This document shows positions 23,078-61,293 of a stretch of DNA of 64,000 bases, piece by piece (position 1 is the stretch's first letter; each line of letters begins with the position of its first letter). This DNA comes from an uncultured Candidatus Saccharibacteria bacterium (lineage in GTDB: Bacteria > Patescibacteriota > Minisyncoccia > Minisyncoccales > PEYH01), in assembly GCA_964616145.1 (NCBI GenBank), contig CAZTRD010000002.1, forward strand, positions 4,553-68,552, written 5' to 3'. The notes beneath the pieces are model-generated. The model had not been told where the DNA came from. It did no database searches and was given only the letters and a program-made list of their open reading frames with translations. A program made the position numbers and the translations under genes.

Positions 23078-23098
23078 ATTTTTATTTTAATTATTTTC

Positions 23099-23641
23099 TT
23101 ATTTTTTAGGACCTTCCAAAATTTGTAATTTATTCTTTTTCTCCTTGGCTCTAAGTTTTCTCGCCAGATAAAATGTCCCGTACTGTATAGATCGAAGTAA
23201 CGGATAGGAAGATTCATCTATCGCGCAATACCATGGATCTATTCTAGAAAGCTCATCTGCGATAGATGAAACAAATTCTGGGATAAGGATGGTTTTTATA
23301 CCATTACCCAGATCCATTTTTTTCTCGGAATTTTGGCGAGGAACAGAAAAACCCGTAATTGCTATTTTCTTTATTTTTTTCTTATTAAAACTAAATACTT
23401 CCTCATAATATTTTTCGGCATTTTGGAATTTCTTAGTAAACACCTTTTTCTTTTCTTTCCACGACCATGCATCAGTTGAACATTCAATGTGAATAAACTC
23501 TTTTGTTTTTGGATGGTATGCTATTACATCCATTTCTCCGATATGACCACCGTGTCCAGTTTTACCAAATCGGATGTTTGTTCGACAAAAATATCCCTTA
23601 TATTCATACCATTCAGCTGTTAATTGTTCTAAAAAATTCAT
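23099..23641 (-). CDS. hypothetical protein (possible nuclease-like fold)
   Basis: ORF only. Confidence 0.3.
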   Translation of the reverse strand: MNFLEQLTAEWYEYKGYFCRTNIRFGKTGHGGHIGEMDVIAYHPKTKEFIHIECSTDAWSWKEKKKVFTKKFQNAEKYYEEVFSFNKKKIKKIAITGFSVPRQNSEKKMDLGNGIKTILIPEFVSSIADELSRIDPWYCAIDESSYPLLRSIQYGTFYLARKLRAKEKKNKLQILEGPKK

Positions 23642-23680
23642 ATTATTAATTATAAAGCCTATTATTAATATTAAACCACT

Positions 23681-24310
23681 ATGAGCTTACCTAAACAAGC
23701 GATAAATGAATTTAAAGAGATTTATAAAGATCAATACAACAAAGAGTTAAGTGATGCTGAAGCTAGTGAAGCAGCTAATAATCTAGTAGATTTCTTTAAA
23801 CTTCTATACGATTGCCATATAAAAGAATTAAAAAGGAAAAGACGACTCAAAAAAGAACCTGAGGGGTTTCATCTAACCGATGGAGAATATAACTGTTGTA
23901 TTTGTCATAAACTGATTTCTAGAGAAGAAACATGGTATGACAAATGGGGTATCAAATGCCTATATTGTCAGAAAGCCGTAAAAGAAGGATTAATCCCCTC
24001 TTTTGTTTGCCATGATAGAGATAGTTGGTATGCAATGTGGGAATTAGAGAGTAAGTTTGGAATTAAAAATCAAACTGTAAGAAAATTAGTTAGAGAAGGT
24101 AAGCTTATAGCGAGAATAGTTCCATATGAAAATGGTAATCCCTATGAATATATCTTCTTAAAAAAGGAAAACTCTGATCTTATAGATCCGGATAGAAAAT
24201 CTCCGGCAAGAAAATCATATGATAAAAATTATAATAGGATTATGGATGCAAGAATTCGAGAGGAGAAGAAAAAAGAATATAAAATTAGTGGAAAAAATAT
24301 TTCATTATGA
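23681..24310 (+). CDS. hypothetical Cys-rich protein. Its N-terminal roughly 40-aa domain is paralogous to the 61-aa ORF at 28430-28615.
   Basis: INEFKEIYKDQYNKELSDAEASEAANNLVDFFKLLY vs LNKFKQIYKKRFNKDLSDQKALKKATRLLRLVEIVY; CCICH...CLYCQ zinc-ribbon-like motifs. Confidence 0.4.
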   Translation: MSLPKQAINEFKEIYKDQYNKELSDAEASEAANNLVDFFKLLYDCHIKELKRKRRLKKEPEGFHLTDGEYNCCICHKLISREETWYDKWGIKCLYCQKAVKEGLIPSFVCHDRDSWYAMWELESKFGIKNQTVRKLVREGKLIARIVPYENGNPYEYIFLKKENSDLIDPDRKSPARKSYDKNYNRIMDARIREEKKKEYKISGKNISL

Positions 24311-36564: not shown

Positions 36565-37341
36565 ATGAATAATAATTGGTATTTAAAAATCCTAGATCAG
36601 TATCATGAAGAGCGGCATACTGCTGCGTTCTATAAAACGCAAGCTTTTCGCAAATTATGGAATGCTACTCAAGGGCTTATTGCAAAAGAAACATTTCAGG
36701 AAAAAATTAAAGGTTTGCGCGTTAAACATAAAATTCCGGAGAATGGATTCTTTGTTTCCGACAAAGTACGTACTCATCCCCCCAAAGAATGGGTTTTATA
36801 CGAAAGCAACTTTTCTAAAAGACTCTATTCTATGATGACGATACAGAAAGATATAGAAAAAATATGTCCCGATGGTTTTCCAAAAAAAGATTTTGTGTCT
36901 ATATTCGAAGACTATTTGTTTTATAATCATTTATTTCTGTCGCCAGAACCAAATTCTCATAACCTAATTTATATAACTGATTTAAAGACGAAATCTGATT
37001 CACTCGGTCATAGACTTAATAATAACGACGTAACCACCTATCCTGTAGCTATTTTGATAAGTCCGTACGCTGGAGAAAGAGATATCCTAGACTTTATTAA
37101 AAGATTATATAAGATTGAGATTAAGCCAATTCAAGAAAAATACAAAAAATCAGATAGTTTAATCGGTAAATCAAGAAAGCGTAATAAAACTAAAAGGATA
37201 AGAAATCAATTTATTTATGAAAATAGACGCCTTCCTTATAAAACAATATCTGCCTTGGTGGGTAAAAAATTTCCCGAACATGATGTAGACGAAGGATCAG
37301 TTGGTAAAATTATTTCGCTAGAAACAAAAAGGCGAAAATAA
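36565..37341 (+). CDS. hypothetical protein
   Basis: ORF only; a basic C-terminus. A hairpin with T tract at about 37391-37415 follows. Confidence 0.3.
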   Translation: MNNNWYLKILDQYHEERHTAAFYKTQAFRKLWNATQGLIAKETFQEKIKGLRVKHKIPENGFFVSDKVRTHPPKEWVLYESNFSKRLYSMMTIQKDIEKICPDGFPKKDFVSIFEDYLFYNHLFLSPEPNSHNLIYITDLKTKSDSLGHRLNNNDVTTYPVAILISPYAGERDILDFIKRLYKIEIKPIQEKYKKSDSLIGKSRKRNKTKRIRNQFIYENRRLPYKTISALVGKKFPEHDVDEGSVGKIISLETKRRK

Positions 37342-37434
37342 GTGTAGTACAGAAAATTCTTACACAAAGAATAATTAATTTTATAAGCTGGCATAATAAG
37401 CCAGTTTTTTATTAATTAAGACATTTATAAAACT

Positions 37435-38709
37435 ATGGAAAAACTTCAATGGCATAACGAAAAAAGAAAAGTTAATAGCCTTAAATATTATGGCAAAAAT
37501 CCTCGCATCATGCCGGATAAAAACATGAAAGATCTAACGAATAGTTTGCAGAAGATGGGCCTGGCGGAAATACCAGCAATTGATATTGACGGGACCATAG
37601 TTGCTGGAAACCAAAGAGTCAAAGCTCTTCAGGTTCTTGGTCGTGGTCAAGAAGAAATCGATGTAAGAATCCCTAATAGAAAACTTACAAAAACAGAATT
37701 TAAGTTCTACCTGCTCGCCAGTAATCGTATAAGTGGCCTCTGGGATTTTGATGCCTTAAAGACTAACTTTAATATTGAAACTCTCCTGGCAACCAGTTTC
37801 GACACAGAAGACCTTAGTAGAATATTTGATGATAATCTCGAAATAGAAGACGACCATTTTGATGAAAATACCGAGCTAAAAAAGATTAAGAAAACAGATA
37901 TTAAGCCCGGGGATTGTTTTGCTCTTGGTCGCCATCGCTTACTTTGCTCCAATGCCCTTGACCCTGCCACTGCTAAAACACTCATGGCTGGAGTCCAGGC
38001 AGATATGATTAATGATGATTTGCCTTACAATATCGGGCTTTCGTACGACAAGGGTGTTGGAAATAAGGGTCGCTATGGCGGAACAACAAATGACAATAAA
38101 AGCGATGAGGAATATAGGGCTTTTGTAAGGACGATCATGCAAAACGCTCTTTCAGTGGCAAAGACGGATGCGCATATATTTTTCTGGTGCGATGAAAGAT
38201 ACGTGTGGCTGTTTCAAGAGCTATATAAAGAATTCGGGCTTGATTCAAAACGCCTTTGCATCTGGATTAAAGATAATGCTTCCCCTACTCCGCAGATTGC
38301 TTTTAATAAGGTGACTGAGTTTTGCGTTTACGGAACCAGGGGCAGGCCATTCTTATCGGATAAAGTAAACAATCTGAATGAATTGTTAAACAAAGAGATA
38401 ACCAGTGGCAATAGATTGTCAGATGATATTTTGGATTTATTGAATATATGGCTAGTAAAAAGATTACCTGGTAATGAATATCAACACCCGACGCAGAAAA
38501 ATCCTCAGGTTCACGAAAAAGCTTTGCGACGCTGCACCCGTCCAGGCGATGCAGTTCTCGATTTAACCTGCGGATCTGGCAGTATTTTATCAGCTTGCCA
38601 TCAGCTTAAACGCAGAGCCTATGTTTGTGATTGCGAACCGATCTTCTGCCAGCTTACTATTAATCGTTTTAAACAAATCTCACATGACGAAATCAAGAAA
38701 CTTAATTAA
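37435..38709 (+). CDS. ParB-like nuclease domain fused to an N4/N6 DNA methyltransferase
   Basis: N-terminal ParB/Srx-like region (EIPAIDIDGTIVAGNQRVKAL), D-L-P-Y motif IV and C-terminal LDLTCGSGS motif I. Confidence 0.6.
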   Translation: MEKLQWHNEKRKVNSLKYYGKNPRIMPDKNMKDLTNSLQKMGLAEIPAIDIDGTIVAGNQRVKALQVLGRGQEEIDVRIPNRKLTKTEFKFYLLASNRISGLWDFDALKTNFNIETLLATSFDTEDLSRIFDDNLEIEDDHFDENTELKKIKKTDIKPGDCFALGRHRLLCSNALDPATAKTLMAGVQADMINDDLPYNIGLSYDKGVGNKGRYGGTTNDNKSDEEYRAFVRTIMQNALSVAKTDAHIFFWCDERYVWLFQELYKEFGLDSKRLCIWIKDNASPTPQIAFNKVTEFCVYGTRGRPFLSDKVNNLNELLNKEITSGNRLSDDILDLLNIWLVKRLPGNEYQHPTQKNPQVHEKALRRCTRPGDAVLDLTCGSGSILSACHQLKRRAYVCDCEPIFCQLTINRFKQISHDEIKKLN

Positions 38710-39454
38710 ATATGGAACAATCTTTAAGCTAGGCAACCATTACTTAGCATATGGCGATAGTCGCGATAAAGAATTGGTAGCACGGCTTGTTGGTCAATTT
38801 AAAGTCAAGGCTGTCATTTGTGATGTTCCATTTGGTATTGCCGTGGTTGAATCAAAAGAGAAATTTCAGCCACTTTCTAAAAACAAACCTATCATTAATG
38901 ACCATTTCCAGAGCGATGCAGAGTATCAGAAATTTACTCAGGATTGGATCGAAGGGATCAAGCCCCACCTTGCTAGAAAAAATGTTTTCTACATCTTCAA
39001 TTGCGATAAAATGATTTTTGCTCTGCGCCAAGGAATGATTCAGGCAGGATTAAAATTTGGACAACTTTTGATATGGGTTAAAACGCATGCTGTTTTAGCT
39101 CGCATGGACTATGCCCCGCAGCATGAGCTTATTGCTTATGGCTGGTATGGTACCCACGAATTTCTCAAATCAAAAGACAAAAGTATTATTGTGTATCCAA
39201 AACCCAATAAAAGTCCTAACCACCCTACCACAAAACCTATTGGCCTTATTCGCAGACTCATTCTAAACAGCACCTGGATCGGAGACGTGGTATTTGACGG
39301 GTTCCTAGGATCAGGCACTTGTTTATTGGCTTGCGAGCAAACCAAACGCATATGTTTTGGAGTGGAAATTGATCTAGAATATGTTGAAACGTCGATTCGA
39401 CAGTTCGAGGTATCAACAAACATTAAAGCAAAAATAATACATGAAAAAAGATAA
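38684..39454 (+). CDS. N4/N6 DNA methyltransferase; start probably at MTKSRN
   Basis: ICDVPFG motif IV and FDGFLGSGT motif I (beta-class order). Confidence 0.55.
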   Translation: MTKSRNLIKYGTIFKLGNHYLAYGDSRDKELVARLVGQFKVKAVICDVPFGIAVVESKEKFQPLSKNKPIINDHFQSDAEYQKFTQDWIEGIKPHLARKNVFYIFNCDKMIFALRQGMIQAGLKFGQLLIWVKTHAVLARMDYAPQHELIAYGWYGTHEFLKSKDKSIIVYPKPNKSPNHPTTKPIGLIRRLILNSTWIGDVVFDGFLGSGTCLLACEQTKRICFGVEIDLEYVETSIRQFEVSTNIKAKIIHEKR

Positions 39455-39845
39455 AACAAAAAACTTATTAATTGAACAGCTTAAAAAGACTCCCGTCGCA
39501 CAAATTGCCTGTGAAAAAGTTCAGGTTGCGAGAGCATCATTCTATCGCTGGAAAATTGAAGATAAGGAATTCGCAAAAGCAGTTGAGGAGGCATTACTTG
39601 AAGGAGAAACTTTTATTACAGAGATGAGCGAGTCACAACTAATTTCTATGATTCGAAATGGTAATTTTCAGGCAGTTCAGATGTGGTTGCGTCATCATAA
39701 TCCTAAATATGGTCAGAAGATAGAGATTTCGGGAAATATAAATCAACCACAAGAGGAATTAAATCCCGAGCAAGAGGCAGTGGTCCGGGAAGCCCTACGT
39801 CTTGCATCATTACTCCCCGAACAAAAATCAGAAGAAAACAATTAA
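39441..39845 (+). CDS. terminase small subunit-like HTH protein
   Basis: Small helical protein directly upstream of terminase large subunit; ASFYRW-type HTH. Confidence 0.4.
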   Translation: MKKDKTKNLLIEQLKKTPVAQIACEKVQVARASFYRWKIEDKEFAKAVEEALLEGETFITEMSESQLISMIRNGNFQAVQMWLRHHNPKYGQKIEISGNINQPQEELNPEQEAVVREALRLASLLPEQKSEENN

Positions 39846-39863
39846 TTAAATTTAAATAAAAAT

Positions 39864-41345
39864 ATGACAGAAATAGACTATCAACAACTTCTCAAAAAGT
39901 ACAATTGTAATCACCTATCTTTAGATTTGGTGGAACGAATGATAAAAGATCGCAAAATCCGTACTGCAATCTGCAAACAAAGTTTCTTTATATTTTTTCA
40001 TTTTTACTTTGCCCATTACGTGAAATATATGACAGCCTCATTTCAGCGCGAAATATTTCATCTCGTAGAGCAGGAAAAAGACAAAAATCTTTTTGTGATC
40101 GCTTTCAGAAATTCAGGGAAATCAACGATTCTTACAACCGCCTATCCTATCTGGGCAATTATTGGTAACCAACAGAAAAAATTCGTATTGATACTTTGCC
40201 AGACAAGAAGTCAAGCAAAACAACACATGATGAATTTAAAACGAGAACTTGAAGGGAATCAACTTCTCAAAGATGACCTTGGGCCCTTCAAGGAAGAAAG
40301 CGATGAATGGGGTTCAACCTCTCTCGTTTTTGCTAGATTAAATGTGCGCATTACCGCAGCCTCAACCGAACAAAGCATCAGAGGATTGAGACATGACCAG
40401 TATCGTCCAGATCTTATTATCGGAGATGATGTTGAAGATCTCAATTCGACCAGAACAATGGAAAGCAGACAGAAAACCTATCAATGGCTCACTGGTGAGG
40501 TGATCCCAGCCGGAGACAAGAGTACTAGGCTTATTATTGTTGGTAATCTTTTACACGAAGATTCGCTCCTTATGCATCTAAAACATGACATAGAAGAAGA
40601 ACGAATTAACGGTTTGTTCAAAGAATATCCACTGTTTGATAAACAAGGAATAATTGCATGGCCGGGAAAATATGCTACCGAGAAAGATATTGAAAATGAA
40701 AAGAAAAAATCCGGGGACGAAATTGCCTGGCAGAGAGAGTATCTTCTCCGCATAGTTTCTGACGCCGGAAGAGTCGTTCATCCCGAATGGATCCATTATT
40801 ACGATTACGATAAAGATCTTCCAAACGACGAACATTTTATTCAAACTTACGTTGGCGTTGATTTAGCGATATCCGAGAAGGATAGCGCACATCGTACAGC
40901 TATTGTTGCAATGAAGATTTATCGACGAGAGGATAGGGACTACGCATATGTCATGCCCTTCCCCTTTAACGATACTATAGGGTTTCCAGAACAAGTAAAT
41001 CAAATAAAGCTACTAGTGTCAGATACTAAGAAATATCGTTATCCGAGAATCTTTGTTGAAAAAGTTGCATATCAAGCATCTATTATCCAGCAGTGTCAAA
41101 ATTTAGGTATTGTGATAGAGGGAGTTCCTCCGCATGGAGATAAACGTGAGAGGCTTGCGCTTACTACCGCAGCGATAAAAGAAGGGCTTATTCTATTTCC
41201 AAACAAAGGAGCAGAGGAACTTATCGCTCAGCTTACTGGATTTGGTACAGAAAAGTATAACGATTTGGCAGATGCATTCTCGTTGGTTGCAAATCAATTT
41301 ATAGCCTATTCTAATCAATCTGGACCAATGCTTACAATTTTTTGA
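39864..41345 (+). CDS. phage terminase large subunit
   Basis: Walker A FRNSGKST, Walker B LIIGDDVED, C-terminal RNaseH-like nuclease (VGVDLAIS). Confidence 0.7.
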   Translation: MTEIDYQQLLKKYNCNHLSLDLVERMIKDRKIRTAICKQSFFIFFHFYFAHYVKYMTASFQREIFHLVEQEKDKNLFVIAFRNSGKSTILTTAYPIWAIIGNQQKKFVLILCQTRSQAKQHMMNLKRELEGNQLLKDDLGPFKEESDEWGSTSLVFARLNVRITAASTEQSIRGLRHDQYRPDLIIGDDVEDLNSTRTMESRQKTYQWLTGEVIPAGDKSTRLIIVGNLLHEDSLLMHLKHDIEEERINGLFKEYPLFDKQGIIAWPGKYATEKDIENEKKKSGDEIAWQREYLLRIVSDAGRVVHPEWIHYYDYDKDLPNDEHFIQTYVGVDLAISEKDSAHRTAIVAMKIYRREDRDYAYVMPFPFNDTIGFPEQVNQIKLLVSDTKKYRYPRIFVEKVAYQASIIQQCQNLGIVIEGVPPHGDKRERLALTTAAIKEGLILFPNKGAEELIAQLTGFGTEKYNDLADAFSLVANQFIAYSNQSGPMLTIF

Positions 41346-41424
41346 AATTAGATCAAAAAATTTATTAAACAAGCGGCAAAAATAATCAAGAATTTACTAA
41401 CTGTAACGGTCTGGACTTACTCGC

Positions 41425-42780
41425 ATGGTTGCGTCATCCTTGCCTTGTATGAATACACCAACCATAGGGCTACCAGGGGCTATAGCCCAAACACATATCC
41501 AAGCCCCAGAAAAGGTAAAATATGTGCTTTATGCTCGTAAATCGACCGAATCTGACGAAAAACAAGCCCTTTCCGTGGACTCACAGATAAAAGAAATGCT
41601 TCAAATAGCAGAAAGAGAGGGTTTAGAAATCGTTGATATCCGCCGAGAATCCCATTCAGCCAAAGATTCCGGCCAAAGACCTGTGTTCAACGAGATGATA
41701 AAAGATATCCGAAGTAGTAGATATACCGGGATTTTAACTTGGGCACCGGATCGACTTTCCAGGAACGCCGGCGACCTAGGGGTGTTGGTCGACCTTATGG
41801 ATCAAAAATTATTGGTAGAAGTAAGAACATTCGGCCAAAGATTTACAAATTCGCCAAGCGAAAAATTCTTGCTCATGATTCTCGGAGCCCAAGGCAAACT
41901 GGAAAACGACCAAAAAAGCGTGAATGTAAAACGAGGATTAAGAATGAGAGTAGAAATGGGTCTTTGGCCTAGCACTGCCCCAACGGGCTATCTTAATGAA
42001 AAACGTATAGATAGAAAAGGCTATGTGATGACTGATCCAGAAAGATCCTCTGTTATCAAGCAAATGTTTGAAAAAGTTGCGTACGAAAAATGGAGCGGTA
42101 GAAAAATATATCATTGGTTAAAATTTGACCTAAATTTCAGGACTAAAAGTAATCATCACCTATCGTTGAGTAACGTTTATCTCATTCTTCAAAATCATTT
42201 CTACTATGGCATATTTGAATTTCCCAGAAAAAGTGGCAATTGGTATACTGGAAAACATCAACCAATCATTAATCAAGCTTTATTCGATGGAGCTCAAGAA
42301 CAATTAAAAAGAGACATTCTTAAGCACGAAAGCAAAGAATTTGCCTTCACCAAGTTGATGAAATGTGGATTGTGCGGTTCCGGAATTACCGCTGATGAAA
42401 AATTCAAGAATCTAGTTGATGGATCAACAAGACGGCATGTTTATTATGGGTGTACCAAAAGCAAGGATAAGAATTGCAAGTGCGGTTATATCAGCGAGGA
42501 AAGTCTAATTGAACAACTTGTTAAGATTATAGATGATATCAGTTTAGATGAATTGGGTATAAAAAAGACATTGGAAGAAGATATCAAGAAATATTATAAA
42601 TTCAAACAAATTGTATTGGGATTAACTGATAAAGACGATTTAGCAGTTAAAGAAATAGATATCAAGAATTACGTAAAATATATCCTAAAAGAAGGTAGAA
42701 TCTTTGAAAAGCGAGATATTCTTGATAATCTTAAGAGTCGGTTGGTATTAAAAGAAAAGCAAATTTATCTGGAAAAATAG
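41425..42780 (+). CDS. large serine recombinase/integrase
   Basis: YARKSTESDEKQALSVDSQ catalytic-Ser resolvase N-domain, a recombinase domain and a C-terminal zinc ribbon (CGLCGS...YYGCTKSKDKNC). Confidence 0.75.
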   Translation: MVASSLPCMNTPTIGLPGAIAQTHIQAPEKVKYVLYARKSTESDEKQALSVDSQIKEMLQIAEREGLEIVDIRRESHSAKDSGQRPVFNEMIKDIRSSRYTGILTWAPDRLSRNAGDLGVLVDLMDQKLLVEVRTFGQRFTNSPSEKFLLMILGAQGKLENDQKSVNVKRGLRMRVEMGLWPSTAPTGYLNEKRIDRKGYVMTDPERSSVIKQMFEKVAYEKWSGRKIYHWLKFDLNFRTKSNHHLSLSNVYLILQNHFYYGIFEFPRKSGNWYTGKHQPIINQALFDGAQEQLKRDILKHESKEFAFTKLMKCGLCGSGITADEKFKNLVDGSTRRHVYYGCTKSKDKNCKCGYISEESLIEQLVKIIDDISLDELGIKKTLEEDIKKYYKFKQIVLGLTDKDDLAVKEIDIKNYVKYILKEGRIFEKRDILDNLKSRLVLKEKQIYLEK

Positions 42781-42997
42781 GTAGGGATTAGATATAATAG
42801 TAGTATTAACAATCTATGTTGCCTAAACCTCGTAAGAGGCATGGCACAAAAACCGATCAAGGCATTAAGCTCGTCGTCAGAGCGCCTTGATCGGTCATAG
42901 CTCGAAAGGGTTATGGGTGGTCGTAAGACCATCGCTGGCGGCGAGCTTTATGTTATGCCACCGAAAAAAGTCATATAAATTTAATTAATAAAAACAT

Positions 42998-45189: not shown

Positions 45190-47013
45190 TCATCCTTGCG
45201 CACGCTCGAGGTTCGCGTTGACGGTTTTGTACAACTCCGCCAACTCCGGAGACAACGGATCGGGAGCGAACTCCGCAACCACTGCAAGTGCTTGAGCGAG
45301 GCCTTCTTCACCCTGTCCGTTGAAGGCGGTTTGATACGCCTTCGTGAGACGAGCAAGAGGCTCTTCCAGAAGTGCAACCAAGGCTTCTGCATCTTGGCAG
45401 AGTTCCTGGTTAAGCTCTAGCTTGCCGTCTTGGATGTAGAGAATGCCCGCTCCCATGAAGCACGTTGCGATGGTCTTGGCTTCGTTGTAGTAGGGCCTGA
45501 ACGTTGAGTTGGCAGCCATGTTCTTGGCGAATCTTCGTAGAATCTCGCCAATTAGGTAAGCTACCATCTCTGGCCCAAGCTGGCCTTCGAAGCTCGCTTT
45601 GATACCCAGCATAGCCTTCAAGCCCAAGATCGTCGCCTTGGTCTCCTCGAAGCTCGGCTTGTGAGCTCCAAAGGCTGGTTTGATCTTGGCGTTGATGAGC
45701 CATGGGTGTCCAAGCTCGTGAGCGATGACAGCGATGAGATGGGCAAGCAGACTGAAGTGCTTCTCAAGCCACTGTAGAGTCTTCTGCCCGAAGCACGTTC
45801 GAATCAGGTGCTCGAACTGTGCTTGACGAATCTTCATCGTGAGCACGTCGAGGATAGCCTTCATCCCCTGCTCTTGGACCTCCGATCTGTTCGGAACCGA
45901 TTGCCCCGCAAGTCGGAAATCCACCGTCCCACCAGCCATGAGGATGAACGCGTCAGCGTCGATCCCCTCGAGCTTCTTGACGTATTCACTGTCGCCGGCT
46001 TCTGCCCCGAACGGTGCGATCGCCCTACGCAAAGCAGTGATAAGACGAGCAAGTTCCGTAGAACGATAGAGCACGCGGAACTCCGGAGCGACGGTGGTTG
46101 GATGTTGATACCCATCCTCCATCATGTGAACCGGCATCACTCTCTGGTTTGGACCGATCTTCAACCAGGCCCAGTCGACATCCGCCCAGACCTCCTCAGT
46201 GTCTGAAAGATTGGATTCAACGATAGCGTCCTTGAGAGCTCGGAAGTAGTTCCGATATGCTCTCGCCACAGATACTTGTTCGAGGGGAAGCCCGGTGTCT
46301 CCCATAGCGTCACGAAGGGATCGAATCAGGACTTCAAGAATTCCTGTGATCTCTCCGATCTCCTCGGGAAATGCGATCACGAATGGGACTTCGCATAGTT
46401 GAGCAACGACGTCCCTGGAAAGCTTGCCCTCGAAGAACCCACCTTCGGACCTGACCAGCACACTGTAGTGATTTGGACAGGCCTGGCTCACGACTTCCTT
46501 GAGTCCAGGATCTTCCCTCAACCCGAGCTGATACGGCACGACGACCTTCGCTCGCCACGCGAAGAATAGCCGATCGAATGCAGCGGCAAGCGGTAGCATG
46601 CCTCTCAGCAGAATCCCCTCGAGAATCGAGAGGCCGTCTGAACGATCAGCTAAGGCAAGCATCATCGTATCTTGAGCTCGAACAACTGGCCAGACAACGA
46701 GCTCGAAGAACTGTTGAAGCTTGACTGGATCGTCTTGAGGAAGCTCACCGAGAGTAGCAGTCCTCTGCGCTGCGTACTGCACCGCAAGATCGAGGGGTAT
46801 TGCCAACCCGATTTCCTCAAGCAATCCGTAGATGTGGGCGCGCGAATCGGGACGTGTCATCACGAAACGCTCGCTTGCCTCCAAAGCTTGCTTGAGATCC
46901 CCTTCGAAATCGCGATTCCCGGTAGAGATTGATACGCCACCTGAACGTCCTGGGTGTAAATCTGCCAAAAAGGCAGCCCATTCTTGACTCCGTCTTGATC
47001 GTGGGATCATCAA
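45190..47013 (-). CDS. high-GC 607-aa gluzincin-type zinc metallopeptidase-like protein (HELGH...E), possibly M3/M32-like
   Basis: IAHELGHPW HExxH with a Glu 24-25 residues downstream; GGAAGGAG SD 5 nt before the ATG; GC-rich codon usage. The internal antisense ORFs are artefacts. Confidence 0.5.
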   Translation of the reverse strand: MMIPRSRRSQEWAAFLADLHPGRSGGVSISTGNRDFEGDLKQALEASERFVMTRPDSRAHIYGLLEEIGLAIPLDLAVQYAAQRTATLGELPQDDPVKLQQFFELVVWPVVRAQDTMMLALADRSDGLSILEGILLRGMLPLAAAFDRLFFAWRAKVVVPYQLGLREDPGLKEVVSQACPNHYSVLVRSEGGFFEGKLSRDVVAQLCEVPFVIAFPEEIGEITGILEVLIRSLRDAMGDTGLPLEQVSVARAYRNYFRALKDAIVESNLSDTEEVWADVDWAWLKIGPNQRVMPVHMMEDGYQHPTTVAPEFRVLYRSTELARLITALRRAIAPFGAEAGDSEYVKKLEGIDADAFILMAGGTVDFRLAGQSVPNRSEVQEQGMKAILDVLTMKIRQAQFEHLIRTCFGQKTLQWLEKHFSLLAHLIAVIAHELGHPWLINAKIKPAFGAHKPSFEETKATILGLKAMLGIKASFEGQLGPEMVAYLIGEILRRFAKNMAANSTFRPYYNEAKTIATCFMGAGILYIQDGKLELNQELCQDAEALVALLEEPLARLTKAYQTAFNGQGEEGLAQALAVVAEFAPDPLSPELAELYKTVNANLERAQG

Positions 47014-47209: not shown

Positions 47210-47725
47210 CTACCAATACCAAGGTGGAAGTTTTAACTTTAAAGATTTAATATTCCTTTCTAATAAAATATTACGTGCGACTTCTTCTATTTTTATGTCT
47301 CCCCTATCTAATTTAGTATGACAATTTGGGCACAACTTAATGATATTCATAAAACAATTTGGCCCCCCTTTTTCTTTTGGAATAAAATGAGCTTCTTCTA
47401 GATATGTTTCTTCGCCGCAAATTTCACAAAGTTTTAATTCTGATAATTTTTTATTATTTGCTTTCAATAAATTTTCGCTATCCTTTTTCTTCAGTCCAAG
47501 TATTCCAATCCATCCTTGTCGACTACCAAAACCACTTAAGGTTGGCCTTCTGATCATCCATCTATCAGCCATTTTTTTCAAGCCCCAGTTTTTATCGTGA
47601 TAAAATTCTTGCCAATCTTGTTCCAAAGTATGGCCAAGTCTTTTTTCTACATCAAGCATCTTAGATGTTTTAGTTCCTTTTGGTTGAGGTAAAAATTTGT
47701 GGTTTTTTGGACTTCTAATAGTCAT
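47210..47725 (-). CDS. HNH endonuclease
   Basis: CEICGEE...EAHFIPKEKGG...CPNCH HNH motif. Confidence 0.6.
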   Translation of the reverse strand: MTIRSPKNHKFLPQPKGTKTSKMLDVEKRLGHTLEQDWQEFYHDKNWGLKKMADRWMIRRPTLSGFGSRQGWIGILGLKKKDSENLLKANNKKLSELKLCEICGEETYLEEAHFIPKEKGGPNCFMNIIKLCPNCHTKLDRGDIKIEEVARNILLERNIKSLKLKLPPWYW

Positions 47726-47768
47726 AATTTGATTCCTCTCGGACTTTCTCGATACTACAACCTGATTG

Positions 47769-47839
47769 CTGCGGGGCTAGGATTCGGACCTAGATTAATT
47801 GGTTCAGAGCCAATCGTGCTACCATTACACTACCCCGCA
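47769..47839 (-). tRNA. tRNA-Gln (anticodon CUG)
   Basis: Hand fold: U1-A72 acceptor TGCGGGG/CCCCGCA, T-arm CTAGG-TCCGAAT-CCTAG, anticodon stem ATTGG/CCAAT with loop CTCTGAA. Confidence 0.7.
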
Positions 47840-50631: not shown

Positions 50632-51252
50632 TTACTCCATTTCTAGTATATATTTTAAATATTCAAAATCTCTGAAATTAGAACCAGCGAATTGACGAAT
50701 TTCCTTTGCAGTTCTCTCACTCCTGGCTAAAATAACAACTTCTTTTTTTAATTCTTTTAAATGTTTTAATATCGGCAGGAAATCACCGTCGCCAGATAAG
50801 ATAATAACTCTATCAAATTTATCTTTTTGTTGCATCAGATGAAAAGCCATATCGACATCGCAATTAGCTTTTCTTTTGATCATATCTTCTTGATGATATC
50901 TTTTAACCGGTTTAAGATGTAATTCGTAGCCGAATTGTTTAATCTTGATATAAAACTTTATTCTACTAATATGACGGCTTAAAAGAGTAAGCAATGCTTC
51001 GTCTAAATTTTTATCTTCGTCCTCAATTTTTTTTAATAAGAACTCATATACATCTAGCAGAGGCACCGTTTCATTATCTAAATAATCATACTGAAAATCG
51101 TAAATCTCTACGCCTCCAAAATACAAAAATTTAGAAGCATTATATTTGTCTTTTAAATAATTTAAAAGTTTCTGATAGTCTATTTTCCACCCTAAGCTTT
51201 TTTCACCACCATAAAATAAATTTGATGCGTCTATAAATACAAACGTTTTCAT
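50632..51252 (-). CDS. NYN-domain (LabA-like PIN-fold) protein; start at MKTFVFIDASN
   Basis: FIDASNL...ILSGDGDF motifs. The longer tracked ORF overlaps the tRNA. Confidence 0.6.
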   Translation of the reverse strand: MKTFVFIDASNLFYGGEKSLGWKIDYQKLLNYLKDKYNASKFLYFGGVEIYDFQYDYLDNETVPLLDVYEFLLKKIEDEDKNLDEALLTLLSRHISRIKFYIKIKQFGYELHLKPVKRYHQEDMIKRKANCDVDMAFHLMQQKDKFDRVIILSGDGDFLPILKHLKELKKEVVILARSERTAKEIRQFAGSNFRDFEYLKYILEME

Positions 51253-51267
51253 AAGATTAGAAGTCCG

Positions 51268-51339
51268 AGCCGATGGTCGGACTTGAACCGACAACCTATC
51301 GCTTACGAAGCGATTGCTCTGCCATTGAGCTACATCGGC
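51268..51339 (-). tRNA. tRNA-Thr (anticodon CGU)
   Basis: Hand fold: acceptor GCCGATG/CATCGGC, T-arm GTCGG-TTCAAGT-CCGAC, anticodon loop TTCGTAA. Confidence 0.75.
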
Positions 51340-51395
51340 AGATTATTGCCTTTATTATATCTAAAACAGAGGGTTTTGCAATAAAGAAGACGTTT

Positions 51396-51480
51396 GAGCG
51401 GGTTAGTGGATGACATTAGAACCTGTTGGGAGGATATGGAAAAAAGTTTTTTAGTTCCAAATTATTTTTATAACAATTGA
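51396..51480 (+). repeat. cassette-junction repeat, copy a (GAGCGGGTTAGTGGATGACATTAGAACCTGTT...), a degenerate tRNA-Gly 3'-half-like segment
   Basis: Direct repeat of 52138-52215, 52655-52735 and 53786-53870. Confidence 0.7.
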
Positions 51481-51590
51481 AAAAGCCCTTTTGTGAGAGG
51501 GGCCAGCTCTGTGCTAGGCGGTGCTTGCGATCTCTTCATTAGAGACCTCCCTTCCCGAGTTTACGCAACCTCGGGTCAAAGTACATCGGC

Positions 51591-51710
51591 TTAATCATCT
51601 TCCGTTGATCTGCCCGTTTCTCTCTGGAATCTCAGCGCAAGAAAAGCGATAAGACTCCCGAGCAACATTCCAGCCAGCAGAAGTAGCTCGATTCGCACAT
51701 AGTCCGACAC
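51591..51710 (-). CDS. 39-aa single-TM peptide VSDYVRIELLLLAGMLLGSLIAFLALRFQRETGRSTEDD (GTG start, high-GC)
   Basis: AAGGAGGTG SD 6 nt before the GTG, immediately after the stop of the 86-aa ORF. Not in the ORF track. Confidence 0.35.
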   Translation of the reverse strand: MSDYVRIELLLLAGMLLGSLIAFLALRFQRETGRSTEDD

Positions 51711-51723
51711 TCGGACCACCTCC

Positions 51724-51984
51724 TTACCTGCTATCGATGTAATCCGGGAGACCAAGTCTTTTTCTTAATCTCTCGGCCCTTCCAGAGTTCCTCTTCCCGA
51801 CGTAGAAGATGATCGGATCTGGGCCACCAATTGCATGATTGATCCCGGCCTTCGTGAGGGCTCTATTGAACACCTCCCCATGCCTATAGGTGGCCTGACG
51901 ATCAAAACCATCGTTGCGCCAAACCACAAGCGCAGTCGGATGACAGAACGTCTTCTTCCAAACTATTCTGGTCTGGTCTATCAT
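51724..51984 (-). CDS. high-GC 86-aa hypothetical protein (cassette 1)
   Basis: GAGGAG SD 4 nt before the ATG. Sits between two junction repeats. Confidence 0.4.
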   Translation of the reverse strand: MIDQTRIVWKKTFCHPTALVVWRNDGFDRQATYRHGEVFNRALTKAGINHAIGGPDPIIFYVGKRNSGRAERLRKRLGLPDYIDSR

Positions 51985-52048
51985 TCCGGTCTCCTCTCTG
52001 CCGTAGCAGATCTTTTCTTAATTTTGATCCTAATCTTTTTTATCTATT

Positions 52049-52215
52049 AGTCAACCCCTTTACTTCCCTCTTTCTTAAATACAACAAACTCTTTATAGAA
52101 ACAAAAAATCGCTATTCCAGCGACTTGACTTTACCCTGAGCGGGTTAGTGGATGACATTAGAACCTGTTTTGAGGATAAAGAAGAAGGGTTTTTGATTCC
52201 GAACTTCTAAAATAA
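52049..52215 (+). repeat. cassette-junction repeat, copy b (leader ...AAAAATCGCTATTCCAGCGACTTGACTTT + tRNA-Gly 3'-like segment + distal part)
   Basis: Read from the sequence. Confidence 0.7.
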
Positions 52216-52218
52216 TCT

Positions 52219-52256
52219 TTGCAAAAAGGAAAACGCCCAGATGAAGCAGCGTTTCC
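52219..52256 (-). terminator. hairpin AAACGC-12 nt-GCGTTT plus TCCTTTTTG, downstream of the 67-aa gene
   Basis: Read from the sequence. A related hairpin (GAACGC...GGCGTTT) follows the 117-aa gene at 53876-53901. Confidence 0.5.
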
Positions 52257-52317
52257 CAACGATGTCCAACCGGGCGAGAACGAGCTACTGTCCGTTCGAC
52301 TTGGTCTGACAGAATGG

Positions 52318-52521
52318 TTAGATCATTTCTTTCGGCGGGGCACTTCTCTCCCACCTCTTGAGCTGGTCTTCCATCTCGAAGTAGCGCCTGACCAAATCTA
52401 CTCGAACCGTCAACCCAACCAATGCCGCCTCCGTGGCGCCATCCCATTCTCCGAGAGTGATCTCATCGTTCGGATCGAATCCATTCTCTCGGAGCCATTT
52501 CTGAAACTGCTCTAGACTCAT
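52318..52521 (-). CDS. high-GC 67-aa protein with a peptidoglycan-binding-domain-like motif (cassette 2)
   Basis: GTGGAGGTG SD 5 nt before the ATG. FQKWLRENGFDPNDEITLGEWDGATEAAL resembles PG_binding_1 (L..GY...DG.FG..T..AV). Confidence 0.4.
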   Translation of the reverse strand: MSLEQFQKWLRENGFDPNDEITLGEWDGATEAALVGLTVRVDLVRRYFEMEDQLKRWERSAPPKEMI

Positions 52522-52569
52522 TTGGTCACCTCCACATACTTTCTACAATAGTATTTTTAATATTGCAAT

Positions 52570-52735
52570 ACTTTACTTCTCGCAATCTAAAACTCGATTT
52601 ATCCTCTCCCTAAACAAAAATCGCTTTCCAGCGACTTGACTTTAACCCTGAGCGGGCTAGTGGATGACATTAGAACCTATTGGGAGGATAGTTATAATTG
52701 TTTATTAGTACCGGACTACCCTTTTAACTGATTGC
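52570..52735 (+). repeat. cassette-junction repeat, copy c
   Basis: Read from the sequence. Confidence 0.7.
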
Positions 52736-52789
52736 CCTATCGTACTATTTATTATATATTTTTTATAGAAAAGCATTCGAAATTCTATG

Positions 52790-53731
52790 TTATCTTTTCC
52801 TTTCACGATTCTTCAGATATCTATTAAGAGCTTCTTTAGAAGAAACCCAAATCCTACCTTCTTTATGGGCCTCTAGTTTTCCGGCTCTGGCTAACAGGTT
52901 AAGATACTTAGAAGAAAAGCCCGTACTCTTGCTAAGAATTGACAATGGAATAGATTTCTCTTTAGATTGGCTGGAAGGAGTTAATGTTTCAAGATATATA
53001 TCAAGAGATCTTTCCACTGATTGAGCGATAAATTGAATAAATGATTCTGGGTTTTGTTTATCTGCCTTTGATAGCGCTTCATAATATTTCTTTCTGTCAT
53101 TCTTTAAGACAATAGATAATGGATAACCGGCTTGTAAAAGGATAACATTCATCATTAGCCTAGCAGTCCTACCATTACCATCAAAAAATGGGTGAATCGC
53201 AACTATCTTATAATGTACCATAGCTGCTAATTCCACAGGATCAAGTTTATTTCTATTCTTGCCAATCCAAGATACTAAATCCGCCATTAATATTGGAACA
53301 TTAATGGCCTCTGGTGGTTTATAATCAGTACCACCAATAAACACTGAACTGTTTCTATATTTTCCAGCCCATTCTTTATCAACATCCTGAACAACAAGTT
53401 GATGTAATGATCTTATTAATCTTTCTGATATTGTGTTTCTTTTATCATGGGCGATCAATTCATATAAATAATCTAAGGCTTCTTTATGGTTTTTTGCCTC
53501 TAGGTGATCTTTTAATGGTTTCCCCTTTATCGTAATCCCCTCATTTATGACCAGATAGGTTTCTTTTAGAGTTAAACTGTTTCCTTCTATGGCATTAGAA
53601 TTATATGTCATTTCTACCTCAAATCTCTCTTTTATCTTTTGTAGAGCTGTTTTTGGTAAGGGCCTATATGAATTAAGCTTATGCAACTTTTTTTCTAACC
53701 TCTCTTTTATTTTTTTATCTAAATAGATCAT
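52790..53731 (-). CDS. Fic/Doc family protein (AMPylation-type toxin family)
   Basis: HPFFDGNGRTARLMMN Fic motif; host-like AT content; occupies one cassette slot. Confidence 0.8.
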   Translation of the reverse strand: MIYLDKKIKERLEKKLHKLNSYRPLPKTALQKIKERFEVEMTYNSNAIEGNSLTLKETYLVINEGITIKGKPLKDHLEAKNHKEALDYLYELIAHDKRNTISERLIRSLHQLVVQDVDKEWAGKYRNSSVFIGGTDYKPPEAINVPILMADLVSWIGKNRNKLDPVELAAMVHYKIVAIHPFFDGNGRTARLMMNVILLQAGYPLSIVLKNDRKKYYEALSKADKQNPESFIQFIAQSVERSLDIYLETLTPSSQSKEKSIPLSILSKSTGFSSKYLNLLARAGKLEAHKEGRIWVSSKEALNRYLKNRERKR

Positions 53732-53785
53732 ATAATCTTAATATGGTTTAACTATATTTATAGTATATACCATATTAAGGAAAAT

Positions 53786-53870
53786 GGATAGAGTGGATGA
53801 TATTAGAAACTGTTTTGAAGAAAATAAAGTTGAGTTTTTAATTCCGAGTTTCTAAAATTCTGATTATTAA
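53786..53870 (+). repeat. cassette-junction repeat, copy d (more diverged)
   Basis: GAGTGGATGATATTAGAAACTGTTTTGAAG...TTTTTAATTCCGAGTTTCTAAAAT. Confidence 0.55.
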
Positions 53871-53935
53871 ATGAGAAACGCCCAAACAAGAGAGCGTTCC
53901 TCGATAGAGATGCTTCTTGCTGGGCGGAGAACGTG

Positions 53936-54289
53936 CTAAACAACGAGCTCATCCTTCTTGATGGTTCCGTGTCCTATGATCTCGAATTGAAGCTGATCGA
54001 TGTGGGGACACGGATCGGTCGAAGAAGGATCGCAGGAGAAACAGACGGCTCCGAACTCCGCAACTTGAATCCGTTCGGATGACCCGAGAGAAACCTTCAG
54101 CTTCTCTACCTCGGCCAACACCTGGCCTTCTGATATCCGCTCCTTCTTCAACTCTGGCCCCTTGATCGTTCTTTCGCCAACTTTGATCTCGGAAACCAAT
54201 GCCCACTCTGGCGTCAACCTTTCTTGTTTGAGCCACTCCCCAGAAGCCACGTACAGACTGTACAGACGAATCTTCCTTCCATCGGGCAT
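53936..54289 (-). CDS. high-GC 117-aa hypothetical protein with a CFSCDPSSTDPCPH Cys/His cluster (cassette 4)
   Basis: GAAGGAGGT SD 7 nt before the ATG; GC-clamp terminator 53876-53901. Confidence 0.4.
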   Translation of the reverse strand: MPDGRKIRLYSLYVASGEWLKQERLTPEWALVSEIKVGERTIKGPELKKERISEGQVLAEVEKLKVSLGSSERIQVAEFGAVCFSCDPSSTDPCPHIDQLQFEIIGHGTIKKDELVV

Positions 54290-54419
54290 AAGGACAACCT
54301 CCTTCTAAATATACTTTAATTATTTTAACCGAAAAGTCAACCTCTTTACTTTCCTTATTCCTAAATCCAATAAACCCTTATTAGAAACAAAAAATCGCTC
54401 TTCCAGCGACTTGACTTTG

Positions 54420-54490
54420 AGCGGGTGAGCGGAATCGAACCGCCACATTCTCCTTGGGAAGGAGACGCTCTGCCACTAAGCCACACCCGC
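54420..54490 (-). tRNA. tRNA-Gly (anticodon CCC)
   Basis: Hand fold: acceptor GCGGGTG/CACCCGC, T-arm GGCGG-TTCGATT-CCGCT, anticodon stem TCTCC/GGAGA with loop TTCCCAA. Confidence 0.75.
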
Positions 54491-54494
54491 AGAA

Positions 54495-54911
54495 TTATCG
54501 GCCGAATAGGCTGCCAAAGAAATCTTTTAATGTGTCCAGAAAACTTGCTTTAGCATTTACAACAGTTTCTTCTTCCAGTTGCTCATTGCCAAGAATTACT
54601 ACCACCTCCTCCCCCGCCTTTTTATACAATCCTTCTTCTCTCATAATATTCTCTGCATATTCTTGCTGAGATGCTTCATAGAAAATCTTGTTCAATTCTG
54701 CATTCTTTTCCGCCAATTTAGTGACTTCTGTGTTTAAATCAACTAGTTGGGCTTGCATGTCCTGTTTCTTTAAAAACAACCTTACATTTCCAACTATCAA
54801 GAAAAGAATTATGGAAACATTAACGCAGACAATCAAAGCAATGGATATTATTGAATCCCAGTCATGATTTTCTTTTTTTCTTTTTTTTGTTATCATATTG
54901 GTATGAAGCAA
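54495..54911 (-). CDS. septum formation initiator (FtsB/DivIC-like) protein
   Basis: Single TM helix followed by a coiled coil; 138 aa. Confidence 0.45.
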   Translation of the reverse strand: MLHTNMITKKRKKENHDWDSIISIALIVCVNVSIILFLIVGNVRLFLKKQDMQAQLVDLNTEVTKLAEKNAELNKIFYEASQQEYAENIMREEGLYKKAGEEVVVILGNEQLEEETVVNAKASFLDTLKDFFGSLFGR

Positions 54912-60969: not shown

Positions 60970-61293
60970 TCACGGGATCGAGAACGAGAGATCGGTCGTC
61001 TTGCCCGGAAGGATCGGGAGGCCATCCAGGATCATCACTACGTGTCGCTGGTACATGGATGGCAACCCCATCCGACTGAGGCATTGTCCGATAGACCCCA
61101 CGATGATCGCCCTCGAGCAATCGGGCACTTCAAAACTCATCATGAGTTCATTCCCTGGCCCAGTTAGCAGTTCAGGTATCGCTCTGGGCTGCCAACCACC
61201 TTGATCCAACTCTTCAGGTGTTTGGCTCAGCGCGATGGCTCCCGAAGTCTTCGTTTGGTGCCCGTCTGGACATATTGCGACATAGAAGTCCAC
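60970..61293 (-). CDS. high-GC 107-aa hypothetical protein (GTG start); faint HicB-like N-terminal pattern
   Basis: AAGGGGGT SD 5 nt before the GTG at 61293; terminator 12 nt after the stop. Confidence 0.4.
   Translation of the reverse strand: MDFYVAICPDGHQTKTSGAIALSQTPEELDQGGWQPRAIPELLTGPGNELMMSFEVPDCSRAIIVGSIGQCLSRMGLPSMYQRHVVMILDGLPILPGKTTDLSFSIP

Follow-up and report, generated by a model that had tools for sequence, protein, structure and literature searches.

A stretch of 64,000 nt from an uncultured Candidatus Saccharibacteria bacterium (GTDB lineage Bacteria; Patescibacteriota; Minisyncoccia; Minisyncoccales; PEYH01), here called the window, was analyzed from contig CAZTRD010000002.1 of assembly GCA_964616145.1 (positions 4,553 to 68,552 of the forward strand). 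Within it, the genes for tRNA-Gly(CCC) and tRNA-Thr(CGU) bracket a tandem array of four minus-strand slots that are split by repeated junctions (J0-J3; Table 1). This layout had been proposed in a first reading of the bare sequence (the original prediction), and ARAGORN, Rfam and a repeat finder agree on it. Three of the slots have a GC content of 0.50-0.535, compared to 0.36 for the 64-kb window. Since the order of the array is reproduced in five contigs from four independent samples, with 99.96-100% identity over the array, it is not a chimera of a single assembly, and the concern originally raised on this point is dispelled.

Read 5' to 3' on the minus strand, the units share one grammar: an element designated LE, usually one open reading frame (ORF), an element designated RE, and a core matching the tRNA 3' end. 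LE opens with AAAGTCAAGTCGCTGGAAnAGCGATTTTTT, which a program scan recognized as an intrinsic-terminator-like hairpin, followed by a AAGTAAAG(A/G)GG motif, a TTGACT-N16-TAnnnT promoter-like site and a GGAGG Shine-Dalgarno (SD) sequence. Such promoter-like sites and terminator-like hairpins are predicted in each LE and are conserved across loci; the hairpin sequence itself varies (types a and b), as expected of a terminator. RE is a conserved 20-nt motif, AGGTTCTAAyATCATCCACT (AGGTTCTAATGTCATCCACT; search form AGGTTCTAAYATCATCCACT), preceded in some cassettes by 40-95 further conserved bases, giving an extended RE of up to ~115 nt. The core that follows, A(A/G)CCCGCTCA, copies the tRNA-Gly end (...CACCCGCTCA), which is the source of the 9-11 nt repeated at J0-J2. 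GC-rich cassettes carry their own GC-clamp terminator, and those of the 117-aa and 67-aa cassettes are similar to each other. In AT-rich cassettes RE often lies within a few bases of the stop codon, where the next LE hairpin would act as terminator. The LE of the first cassette lies directly behind the head tRNA-Gly(CCC), and the ~100 nt once taken for a shared tRNA-Gly leader are its 3' trailer, made up of the terminator hairpin and the first-cassette promoter. At the far end, J0 passes without an LE into native DNA (the tRNA-Thr promoter-like site), and an 11-nt direct repeat, ACCCGCTCAAA, therefore marks both limits of the array as a whole: one copy forms the tRNA-Gly 3' end and the other lies at J0. 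Insertion at a tRNA 3' end with a distal direct repeat of that end is a hallmark of tRNA-targeting elements; an empty site would be tRNA-Gly joined directly to the native AACGTCTTC....

Table 1. Features of the array, from the head tRNA outward, and the serine recombinase gene of the same window (window positions)
Feature	Positions	Strand	Details
tRNA-Gly(CCC), array head	54419-54490	-	ARAGORN; Rfam, 67 bits; 3' end ...CACCCGCTCAAA; core matches
LE of cassette 4 (tRNA-proximal)	54290-54418	-	82% identity to 52031-52132; hairpin 54392-54412 and T-run; AAGTAAAGAGG motif; promoter-like TTGACT-N16-TAAAGT, 54313-54340; GGAGG SD
117-aa GC-rich orphan ORF	53936-54289	-	CxxC...CPH motif
GC-clamp terminator hairpin of the 117-aa cassette	53874-53903	-	read from the sequence; repeat family
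Junction J3, truncated	53786-53870	-	RE motif 53792-53811 (AGTTTCTAATATCATCCACT)
AT-rich Fic/DOC gene, 313 aa	52790-53731 (slot 52790-53779)	-	Pfam PF02661, E = 8e-24, 84.7 bits (cut-off 24)
Junction J2, 3' module of the Fic slot	52649-52760	-	extended RE; RE motif 52659-52678; core AGCCCGCTCA, 52649-52658
LE of cassette 2	52522-52648	-	hairpin 52618-52637; AAGTAAAG motif; promoter-like TTGCAA..TAGAAA; GGAGG SD
67-aa GC-rich orphan ORF	52318-52521	-	
Terminator hairpin and junction J1	52137-52256	-	hairpin 52228-52256; RE motif 52147-52166; core AACCCGCTCA, 52137-52146
LE of cassette 1	51985-52136	-	hairpin 52106-52126; GGAAGTAAAGGGG motif; TTGACT-N16-TAGGAT, 52027-52054; hairpin in the 5' untranslated region (5'-UTR); SD
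GC-rich cargo of cassette 1	51591-51984	-	86-aa orphan ORF, 51724-51984
39-aa peptide, single transmembrane segment	51591-51710	-	GTG start at 51710; SD AAGGAGG
Terminator hairpin and distal junction J0	51393-51503	-	hairpin 51480-51503; RE motif 51405-51424; core ACCCGCTCAAA, 51393-51403
Native flank, array end	51267-51381	-	promoter-like TTGCAA-N16-TATAAT, 51354-51381, and tRNA-Thr(CGU)
tRNA-Thr(CGU)	51267-51339	-	ARAGORN and Rfam
Large serine recombinase	41425-42780	+	PF00239, 1e-19; PF07508, 7e-14; PF13408, 9e-8; PHROG integrase, 3e-61

The repeat finder grouped 51395-51484, 52137-52226 and 52649-52738 (71-78% identity), 52031-52132 with 54317-54418 (82%), and 52147-52253 with 53792-53898 (74%). 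A 28-nt junction motif occurs three times (0, 0 and 1 mismatch), with none expected in shuffles, and a relaxed RE search of the whole 64 kb returned four sites, all within the array. Shuffle tests found the last ~16 nt of J0-J2 to be significantly tRNA-Gly-like (a score reached by 0-42 of 2000 shuffles); similarity upstream of these bases was not significant, and the resemblance to the T loop requires a 5-nt indel and was not significant alone. The junctions had been described as diverged copies of both the T arm and the 3' end of tRNA-Gly, and it is the 3' end that stands. J3 had been counted as a further copy of the same repeat; it lacks GAGCGGG, ends in ...ATCATCCACTCTATCC and showed no significant similarity to tRNA-Gly in the same test. 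Its RE is followed by CTATCC, a remnant of an Asn-type core (see below) and not of the Gly core, and then by no LE.

Several other identities for the junctions were tried and rejected. They are neither tRNAs nor pseudo-tRNAs: the junctions and the extended RE gave no Rfam match even at E <= 10, and ARAGORN detected only three tRNAs in the window, none at a junction. The idea that the extended RE is a decayed full-length tRNA with relics of the D-arm and anticodon loop was not supported, its local alignments falling in the range of shuffles (p ~0.06-0.8). Nor are the junctions structured RNAs or attC-like hairpins, since outside the 5-9 bp terminator hairpin they fold no better than shuffled sequences (z = +0.7 to -1.5 for RNA; DNA folds of either strand likewise).

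These results bear on the integron-like system named in the original prediction. Arrays of integron cassettes, including clusters of attC sites lacking an integron integrase (CALINs), offer an obvious likeness: co-oriented, mostly single-ORF cassettes with orphan cargo, a repeated site-like element (here repeats of 60-170 nt), junctions homogeneous within a lineage, a fixed anchor and no integrase in the array. Integrons, however, rely on IntI and attC, are anchored at attI and depend on the Pc promoter for expression, whereas the window array is anchored at a tRNA 3' end and its cassettes are predicted to have their own promoter and terminator. The junction alignment contains no R''/R' GTTRRRY pair, attC-type imperfect palindromes are absent, and no tyrosine recombinase, and hence no IntI, was detected by Pfam among 59 window ORFs, a set that took in every ORF of the array and its surroundings. 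The term does not hold in its strict sense, and a true integron or CALIN is extremely improbable.

The junction elements are not confined to this locus. A search pattern for LE, AAAGTMAAGTCGC-N5-9-GCGATTTT, matched 16 times in JGI metagenomes, and after the removal of two chance-looking matches 14 loci remained (these and other comparison sequences are designated by L numbers). Among GTDB species representatives it was found in two contigs of a single metagenome-assembled genome (MAG), Candidatus Paceibacterota bacterium STA_67, one contig having 2 copies and the other 5, and as a further isolated match in one Enterococcus genome. The LE/RE architecture is present in at least ten other metagenomic loci as well as in the Candidatus Paceibacterota MAG, and 28 distinct RE junctions were catalogued in 11 sources. 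Going beyond the original prediction, the motif family is common to arrays behind at least three tRNA isoacceptor types, and its core tracks the head tRNA. All three types have the same RE and LE, but the ~10 nt between them always match the 3' end of the array's head tRNA, and this is the decisive observation. The core ACCCGCTCA is found behind tRNA-Gly (CCC, GCC and UCC), CTCCGGAGCA behind tRNA-Asn(GUU) in L027 and at junctions of L016, L020 and L024, and a third type, CACCCAGCCAA, is the end of tRNA-His(GUG) in L010 and recurs at the junctions of L019. The arrays in these loci follow the grammar seen in the window, with four cassettes in 2.7 kb in L019, at least seven in L024, and at least eight in L027, where they lie downstream of dnaG-rpoD-tRNA-Asn. 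Units are 0.4-1.2 kb in size and without integration genes; in the sequences inspected they are tightly packed and mostly of one ORF, and all inspected ORFs are co-oriented with the tRNA. The minimal case is L011, in which tRNA-Gly(GCC) is followed by LE, one GC-rich ORF, RE, ACCCGCTCA and native DNA, so that the single insert is flanked by a 9-nt repeat of ACCCGCTCA.

A purely local history, in which tRNA-Gly and its trailer were duplicated in tandem and the copies decayed, with unrelated genes between them and no mobility, would account for the likeness of the junction ends to the tRNA-Gly 3' end and trailer. It is already contradicted by the conservation of RE across tRNA types, for RE, together with its 5-nt insertion compared to a T arm, is unchanged in arrays behind tRNA-Asn and in the His-type junctions of L019; identical cassettes also occur in different arrays and genomes. 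We give this explanation almost no credence.

Some junctions depart from the common form. The conserved ~115-nt extended RE (TATAGTGAGTAGCAYGGTRGGGTAA ... AATAGTTCTAACGTTGTTCACGATGCGGAGCA) separates certain cassettes and in some cases follows another RE (L008 588-706 and 1283-1400; L016 738-856; L020 5611-5730; L013(-) 1633-1520; window 52649-52760), and looks like an empty or degenerate cassette; Rfam detected no tRNA in it, and its likeness to tRNA 5' halves was not significant. In L020/L007 (4420-4443, equal to L006 5234-5257), the array is headed, directly after a Sua5/YrdC gene, by a perfect 24-nt tRNA-Asn 3' fragment (GGTCCGAGTCCTGGCTCCGGAGCA) whose identity starts in the T stem/loop, with no intact tRNA. 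This fragment suggests either a rearrangement or a second, T-loop-type integration event. A bAvd and reverse transcriptase pair of the diversity-generating retroelement type is located ~3 kb upstream of it.

The GC-rich mini-genes of 86, 39, 67 and 117 aa with GGAGG-type SD sequences are present as predicted. Neither the 86-aa nor the 67-aa protein has relatives among 5.8e9 protein sequences, and the peptidoglycan-binding likeness suggested for the latter is a weak match to PG_binding_1 below the threshold (E = 0.027, 15 bits; cut-off 23). For the 117-aa protein only two relatives emerged, both in arrays of the same kind, and a profile search of 1.84e9 representatives added nothing credible; its AlphaFold model has a pLDDT of 62. 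The ratio of nonsynonymous to synonymous substitution rates (dN/dS) is 0.31-0.36 for the 117-aa gene, whose ORF persists in three genomes; another GC-rich family (110/114 aa) gives 0.32. By these sequence measures the GC-rich orphan ORFs (~52% GC) are protein-coding and under purifying selection. Non-coding RNAs in the GC-rich slots are ruled out by the dN/dS of ~0.3 and the preserved ORFs, and Rfam gave no matches. A GC-rich cassette ORF in L019 (~700-1086) has an EF-Tu-like N-terminal G1 region (KPHLNIGTIGHSDHG), the rest of the ~130-aa protein being unrelated.

One slot holds an AT-rich Fic gene, as originally read, and across the arrays domain scans assigned AT-rich cargo to Fic, RhuM-Fic, NYN, NUDIX, radical SAM and HATPase+DUF4325; putative HD, histidine-phosphatase-like, methyltransferase-like and membrane proteins were recognized by eye. 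This is typical accessory or defence-island material. The Fic slot is the only one in the window without an LE and has its own palindromic element upstream, a 14-nt inverted repeat just before the Fic start (53737-53750 / 53766-53779; CTTAATATGGTTTA / TATACCATATTAAG; 93% complementary) that is possibly an autoregulatory operator for the Fic protein. The protein also gave a weak C-terminal HTH_17 match.

Some conserved frames surround different ORFs. Window slot 2 and L011 are ~90% identical in LE up to 5 nt before the start codon, and their last ~55 nt including RE are conserved, with unrelated GC-rich ORFs between. Likewise, slot 1 and a cassette of L026 have the promoter and 5'-UTR in common and differ in the ORF. 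L011 may come from the same genome as the window, because the same JGI sample holds contigs identical to the window.

In agreement with the original prediction, a Pfam scan found no integrase or other recombinase in any cassette of the window array. The prediction had also offered a graveyard of tRNA-targeted elements, the slots being decayed integrase-bearing islands or prophages serially integrated into tRNA-Gly. Serial integration with partial-tRNA repeats and subsequent decay is well documented (10.1101/2020.12.28.424599; PMC3146451; PMC5704250). Decay, however, does not account for a compact architecture that is uniform over 28 junctions in 11 sources, with mostly one ORF per unit and a promoter-like site directly before the gene, nor for LE and RE being conserved across arrays behind different tRNAs. 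The uniform, packed and co-oriented units, with no integrase or structural-gene fragments, therefore point to an organized system and not to decay, and we consider a graveyard very unlikely.

Comparisons between loci provide evidence of movement. The 117-aa cassette lies in a Gly array in the window and in Asn-type arrays in L008 and L020/L007 (85-86% nt identity), in the latter behind the 24-nt tRNA-Asn fragment; its RE in the window still ends in CCACTCTA, like Asn-type REs. A 177-aa cassette stands directly behind tRNA-Asn in L027, and is preceded in L016 by a 198-aa GC-rich cassette and in L020 by the 117-aa and a 110-aa cassette, identity between L027 and L016/L020 resuming at the core. 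In a case of recent sharing, L024 and L027 have two cassettes in common (992 nt, 99.3% identity) between unrelated neighbors, and the break points are inside junctions. L012 is the orthologous tRNA-Gly(CCC) site of a related genome (75% nt identity over divIC, identical tRNA and LE hairpin); an AT-rich Cys-repeat gene follows its hairpin, unlike the window cargo, so that the proposed comparison of related genomes did reveal the same site filled differently. A further contig, L032, matches the window with 100% identity between positions 64000 and 54385 and, beyond the LE hairpin, runs into a different GC-rich cassette (L032 18560-18931). The same sample also contains the window arrangement. The tRNA-Gly(CCC) and tRNA-Gly(UCC) loci share ~60 nt of tRNA end and hairpin, and the L032 tail is 86% like the tRNA-Gly(UCC) LE of L017; either the strains differ at the tRNA-proximal slot, or the assembly cross-joined this contig to the tRNA-Gly(UCC) locus.

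Could such exchange be due to homologous recombination alone, the junction serving as a portable homology region for RecA-dependent double crossovers after DNA uptake, as in the minimal mobile elements of Neisseria, with no dedicated recombinase? Shared blocks break off at varying points inside the conserved junction, junctions are more alike within a genome or array than cargo is, the hairpin type of the 117-aa cassette follows the genome and its promoter the cargo, and no recombinase was found in or beside any array, all of which would fit. This leaves unexplained the exact landing of the first cassette at the tRNA 3' end, the match of the 9-11 nt core to the head tRNA with RE and LE constant, and the 11-nt tRNA-end direct repeat bounding the array, and we judge it improbable as the sole mechanism.

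A non-autonomous, transposon-like element appears less probable still. Here a transposase acting in trans would recognize the tRNA end, with RE as a mimic, and produce a target-site duplication of 9-11 bp. A short target repeat does flank both the single insert of L011 and the whole array, it is target-derived and differs between tRNAs, and the resemblance of RE to the T-loop/acceptor region would make it a possible secondary target. The units nevertheless lack terminal inverted repeats (LE AAAGTMAAG; RE reverse complement AGTGGATGA), and no inverted repeat links LE and RE as in miniature inverted-repeat transposable elements or palindrome-associated elements of the IS200/IS605 type. No transposase was found, the repeat is 9, 10 or 11 nt long with partial similarity continuing upstream, and cores travel with cassettes into other array types (window J3 and L026 2404), which is unexpected for a pure target-site duplication. 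In L026 (reverse complement, 2404-2485) two REs stand in tandem: 18 nt behind an Asn-type RE and core (..CATCCACTCTCCGGAG) comes another RE whose core differs, CCACCCATGGA, an indication that cores can move with cassettes into arrays of another type.

A recombinase was sought within the window and beyond. No integrase or transposase was present in the array, among the 59 window ORFs scanned, in the 10 kb beyond the window end or in 10 cargo proteins scanned from related arrays. The window does encode a large serine recombinase, 9 kb from the array, with the full architecture of that class (Resolvase catalytic domain, Recombinase domain and zinc ribbon). It lies at the end of a phage-like remnant (36565-42933) with two ParB-like/N6_N4 DNA methylases (37435-39454) and small (39441-39845) and large (39864-41345) terminase subunits. 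Homologues with 58-67% identity are encoded on six IMG/VR contigs, in two of which the gene abuts a tRNA 3' end: tRNA-Asp in L035, with a partial T-arm copy 70 nt downstream, and tRNA-Gln in L040, with a hairpin resembling the LE hairpin. Because of these positions the clade is plausibly tRNA-end-targeting, and the enzyme is a candidate, from its sequence and context, for the trans-acting recombinase. Directly behind it is a LOOT RNA (42820-42933, 93.8 bits), a motif not found in the literature searched, and another lies 2.5 kb from the homologous recombinase gene in L040; LOOT may therefore belong to these recombinase elements. A prophage at tRNA-Gln was considered and rejected, as no direct repeat of the tRNA-Gln 3' end bounds the recombinase region on the right strand. 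A phage source of the junctions or cargo was likewise rejected: the LE pattern had no match among the 2.9 M viral contigs of IMG/VR, four RE-pattern matches there look like chance, the extended-RE pattern and the 117- and 86-aa proteins gave nothing convincing, and no parent element with RE and LE turned up in the viral contig scans.

Taken together, the array probably consists of small, recombinase-less cassettes that accreted serially at the tRNA-Gly 3' end through a recombinase acting in trans, and belongs to a Paceibacterota family of such arrays; our confidence in this reading is moderate. Serial site-specific integration is the simplest explanation because it accounts for the docking at the tRNA end, the core that matches the head tRNA, the distal RE-core beside native DNA and the internal RE-core-LE junctions. 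The serial insertion footprint of the original prediction is supported by the same core copies and distal junction, by the different filling of L012 and by the comparison of L027 with L016 and L020. A recognized class of integrases uses the asymmetric 3' ends of tRNA genes (10.1101/2020.11.02.365908). In the proposed mechanism, a free circular cassette, a form that we infer, would carry RE-core-LE as an attP-like site, which the recombinase would join to a tRNA 3' end or to an existing junction. Insertion would regenerate an intact tRNA, push older cassettes outward and leave RE-core beside native DNA at the far end. The LE hairpin of a cassette would insulate it from upstream transcription. 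Junction homology would then permit further shuffling by homologous recombination, which indeed appears to reshuffle arrays as well, because break points vary and junctions are homogeneous within a genome; it could even be the main mode of exchange.

Several observations weigh against serial site-specific accretion. The array is invariant in all contigs that span it, and no circular form, empty site or excision product was seen in the assembled contigs. L032 is not counted as evidence of turnover because its tail may be a cross-join through the shared 60 nt. Shared blocks do not all end at the same point of the junction, and homologous recombination therefore fits at least as well as site-specific exchange. 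The cores of different arrays are not homologous, so that movement between Gly, Asn and His arrays is not simple conservative recombination within an identical overlap, and inspection of the junctions revealed no dyad symmetry of the kind usual for recombinase core sites. No recombinase could be tied to the arrays: a search of the 64 kb found no RE or LE near the serine recombinase, and no homologue of it occurs in the other array loci, all of which are short contigs.

Other parts of the window carry accessory genes without these junctions. Directly behind tRNA-Thr, at the distal end of the array, is a gene for an NYN-domain (LabA-like nuclease) protein (50632-51255, minus strand). NYN genes recur as bona fide cassettes of Asn arrays (L014 1188-1667; L027 from ~7900), and the pair that was compared is 26% identical; the recurrence may be coincidental or may point to a functional link. 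An HNH endonuclease gene (171 aa, 47210-47839) lies ~40 nt downstream of tRNA-Gln(CUG), followed by a GC-rich DUF7897 gene, and is an accessory insertion with no RE/LE signature and no detectable tRNA-Gln direct repeat. Other single-gene islands of ~50-56% GC are found at 7075-7614(+), 6847-6960(-), 60970-61293(-) and 45190-47013(-), all of which have an AT-rich promoter-like site and a terminator of their own, and none LE/RE junctions; they contain a 179-aa ORF next to a small transmembrane peptide, a 107-aa ORF and a 607-aa DUF7897 protein. Moron-like GC-rich genes are therefore not confined to the tRNA array. An accessory or defence-like cluster (16774-24310, minus strand) includes DUF3800 and DUF2726/REase-like genes and several ORFs without a Pfam match.

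Phage morons are self-contained promoter-gene-terminator units of deviant GC content between resident genes, and in the minimal mobile elements of Neisseria cargo is exchanged between conserved flanks. Both differ from the present system in having no tRNA-derived junction and no tRNA-anchored arrays. Pseudo-SCC elements at rlmH (SCC, staphylococcal cassette chromosome) are comparable in being att-bounded, non-autonomous and arranged in tandem at the 3' end of a target gene. The window units share with these and with cis-mobilizable elements (CIMEs) the att-like bounding repeats and the lack of recombination or transfer genes. CIMEs are also found in tandem at a target-gene 3' end and depend on the recombinase of a related autonomous element; they are, however, by definition decay products of integrative and conjugative or integrative and mobilizable elements, large and heterogeneous (PMC5704250), whereas the window units are uniform, minimal and, as predicted from their promoter-like sites, self-expressed.

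The tycheposons of Prochlorococcus resemble the arrays in that flexible genes of a streamlined genome are placed beside tRNAs, with partial tRNA copies between integrations and newer elements pushing older ones outward (10.1101/2020.12.28.424599). They are multi-gene elements with an integrase and replication or packaging hallmarks, and their partial tRNAs are plain att repeats (10.1101/2020.12.28.424599), whereas the window cassettes are single-gene, have conserved LE and RE, and include neither hallmark genes nor the element-encoded integrase of tRNA-targeting integrative elements. Close parallels in layout come from the ssrA islands of Dehalococcoides, where tandem units downstream of a small stable-RNA gene are bounded by a short 3'-end repeat, the repeat is immediately preceded by a conserved motif without counterpart in the RNA gene (as is the case for RE), composition is atypical, and some units lack an integration module and have been proposed to be mobilized in cis or in trans (PMC3146451). 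The integrase of these islands, DsiB, is a CcrB-like large serine recombinase (PMC3146451). Those islands, however, are in the size range of phage genomes, most have a six-gene integration module, and they occupy the single locus ssrA (PMC3146451), compared to units of 0.4-1.2 kb without integration genes and one junction family for at least three tRNA types.

The principle of accretion at tRNA 3' ends, with repeats of part of the tRNA, is thus already known, and on a larger scale the same arrangement exists in ssrA islands, tycheposons and CIMEs. We could not find a description of single-gene, self-expressed cassettes without integration genes, combined with a junction family of adapted cores, in Paceibacterota and with orphan ORFs of ~52% GC swapped in constant frames, and the literature searched contained no link between Patescibacteria or the Candidate Phyla Radiation (CPR), tRNAs and cassette arrays. 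It is conceivable, and we suggest it only tentatively, that Paceibacterota possess a dedicated gene-capture platform in which the tRNA end is the docking site, RE-core-LE mimics that end and stands in for attC, and cassettes come equipped with a terminator and promoter, making it a functional analogue of the integron and unrelated to it. On this view modularity would have a second level, at which orphan ORFs of ~52% GC are swapped almost exactly between an AT-rich promoter/SD frame and a 3' frame, both conserved. Were this true, it would imply a mechanism that loads new ORFs into expression-ready frames.

The LE pattern and RE motif provide a handle for mining metagenomes for such arrays and for small orphan proteins. 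With junctions derived from the docking site and ORFs in reusable frames, the arrays offer a natural comparison for the origin of integron cassettes. To our knowledge, how CPR bacteria with their tiny genomes gain and turn over accessory genes is poorly understood, and recombinase-less cassettes at several tRNA genes would give them a concrete route by which accessory genes are acquired.

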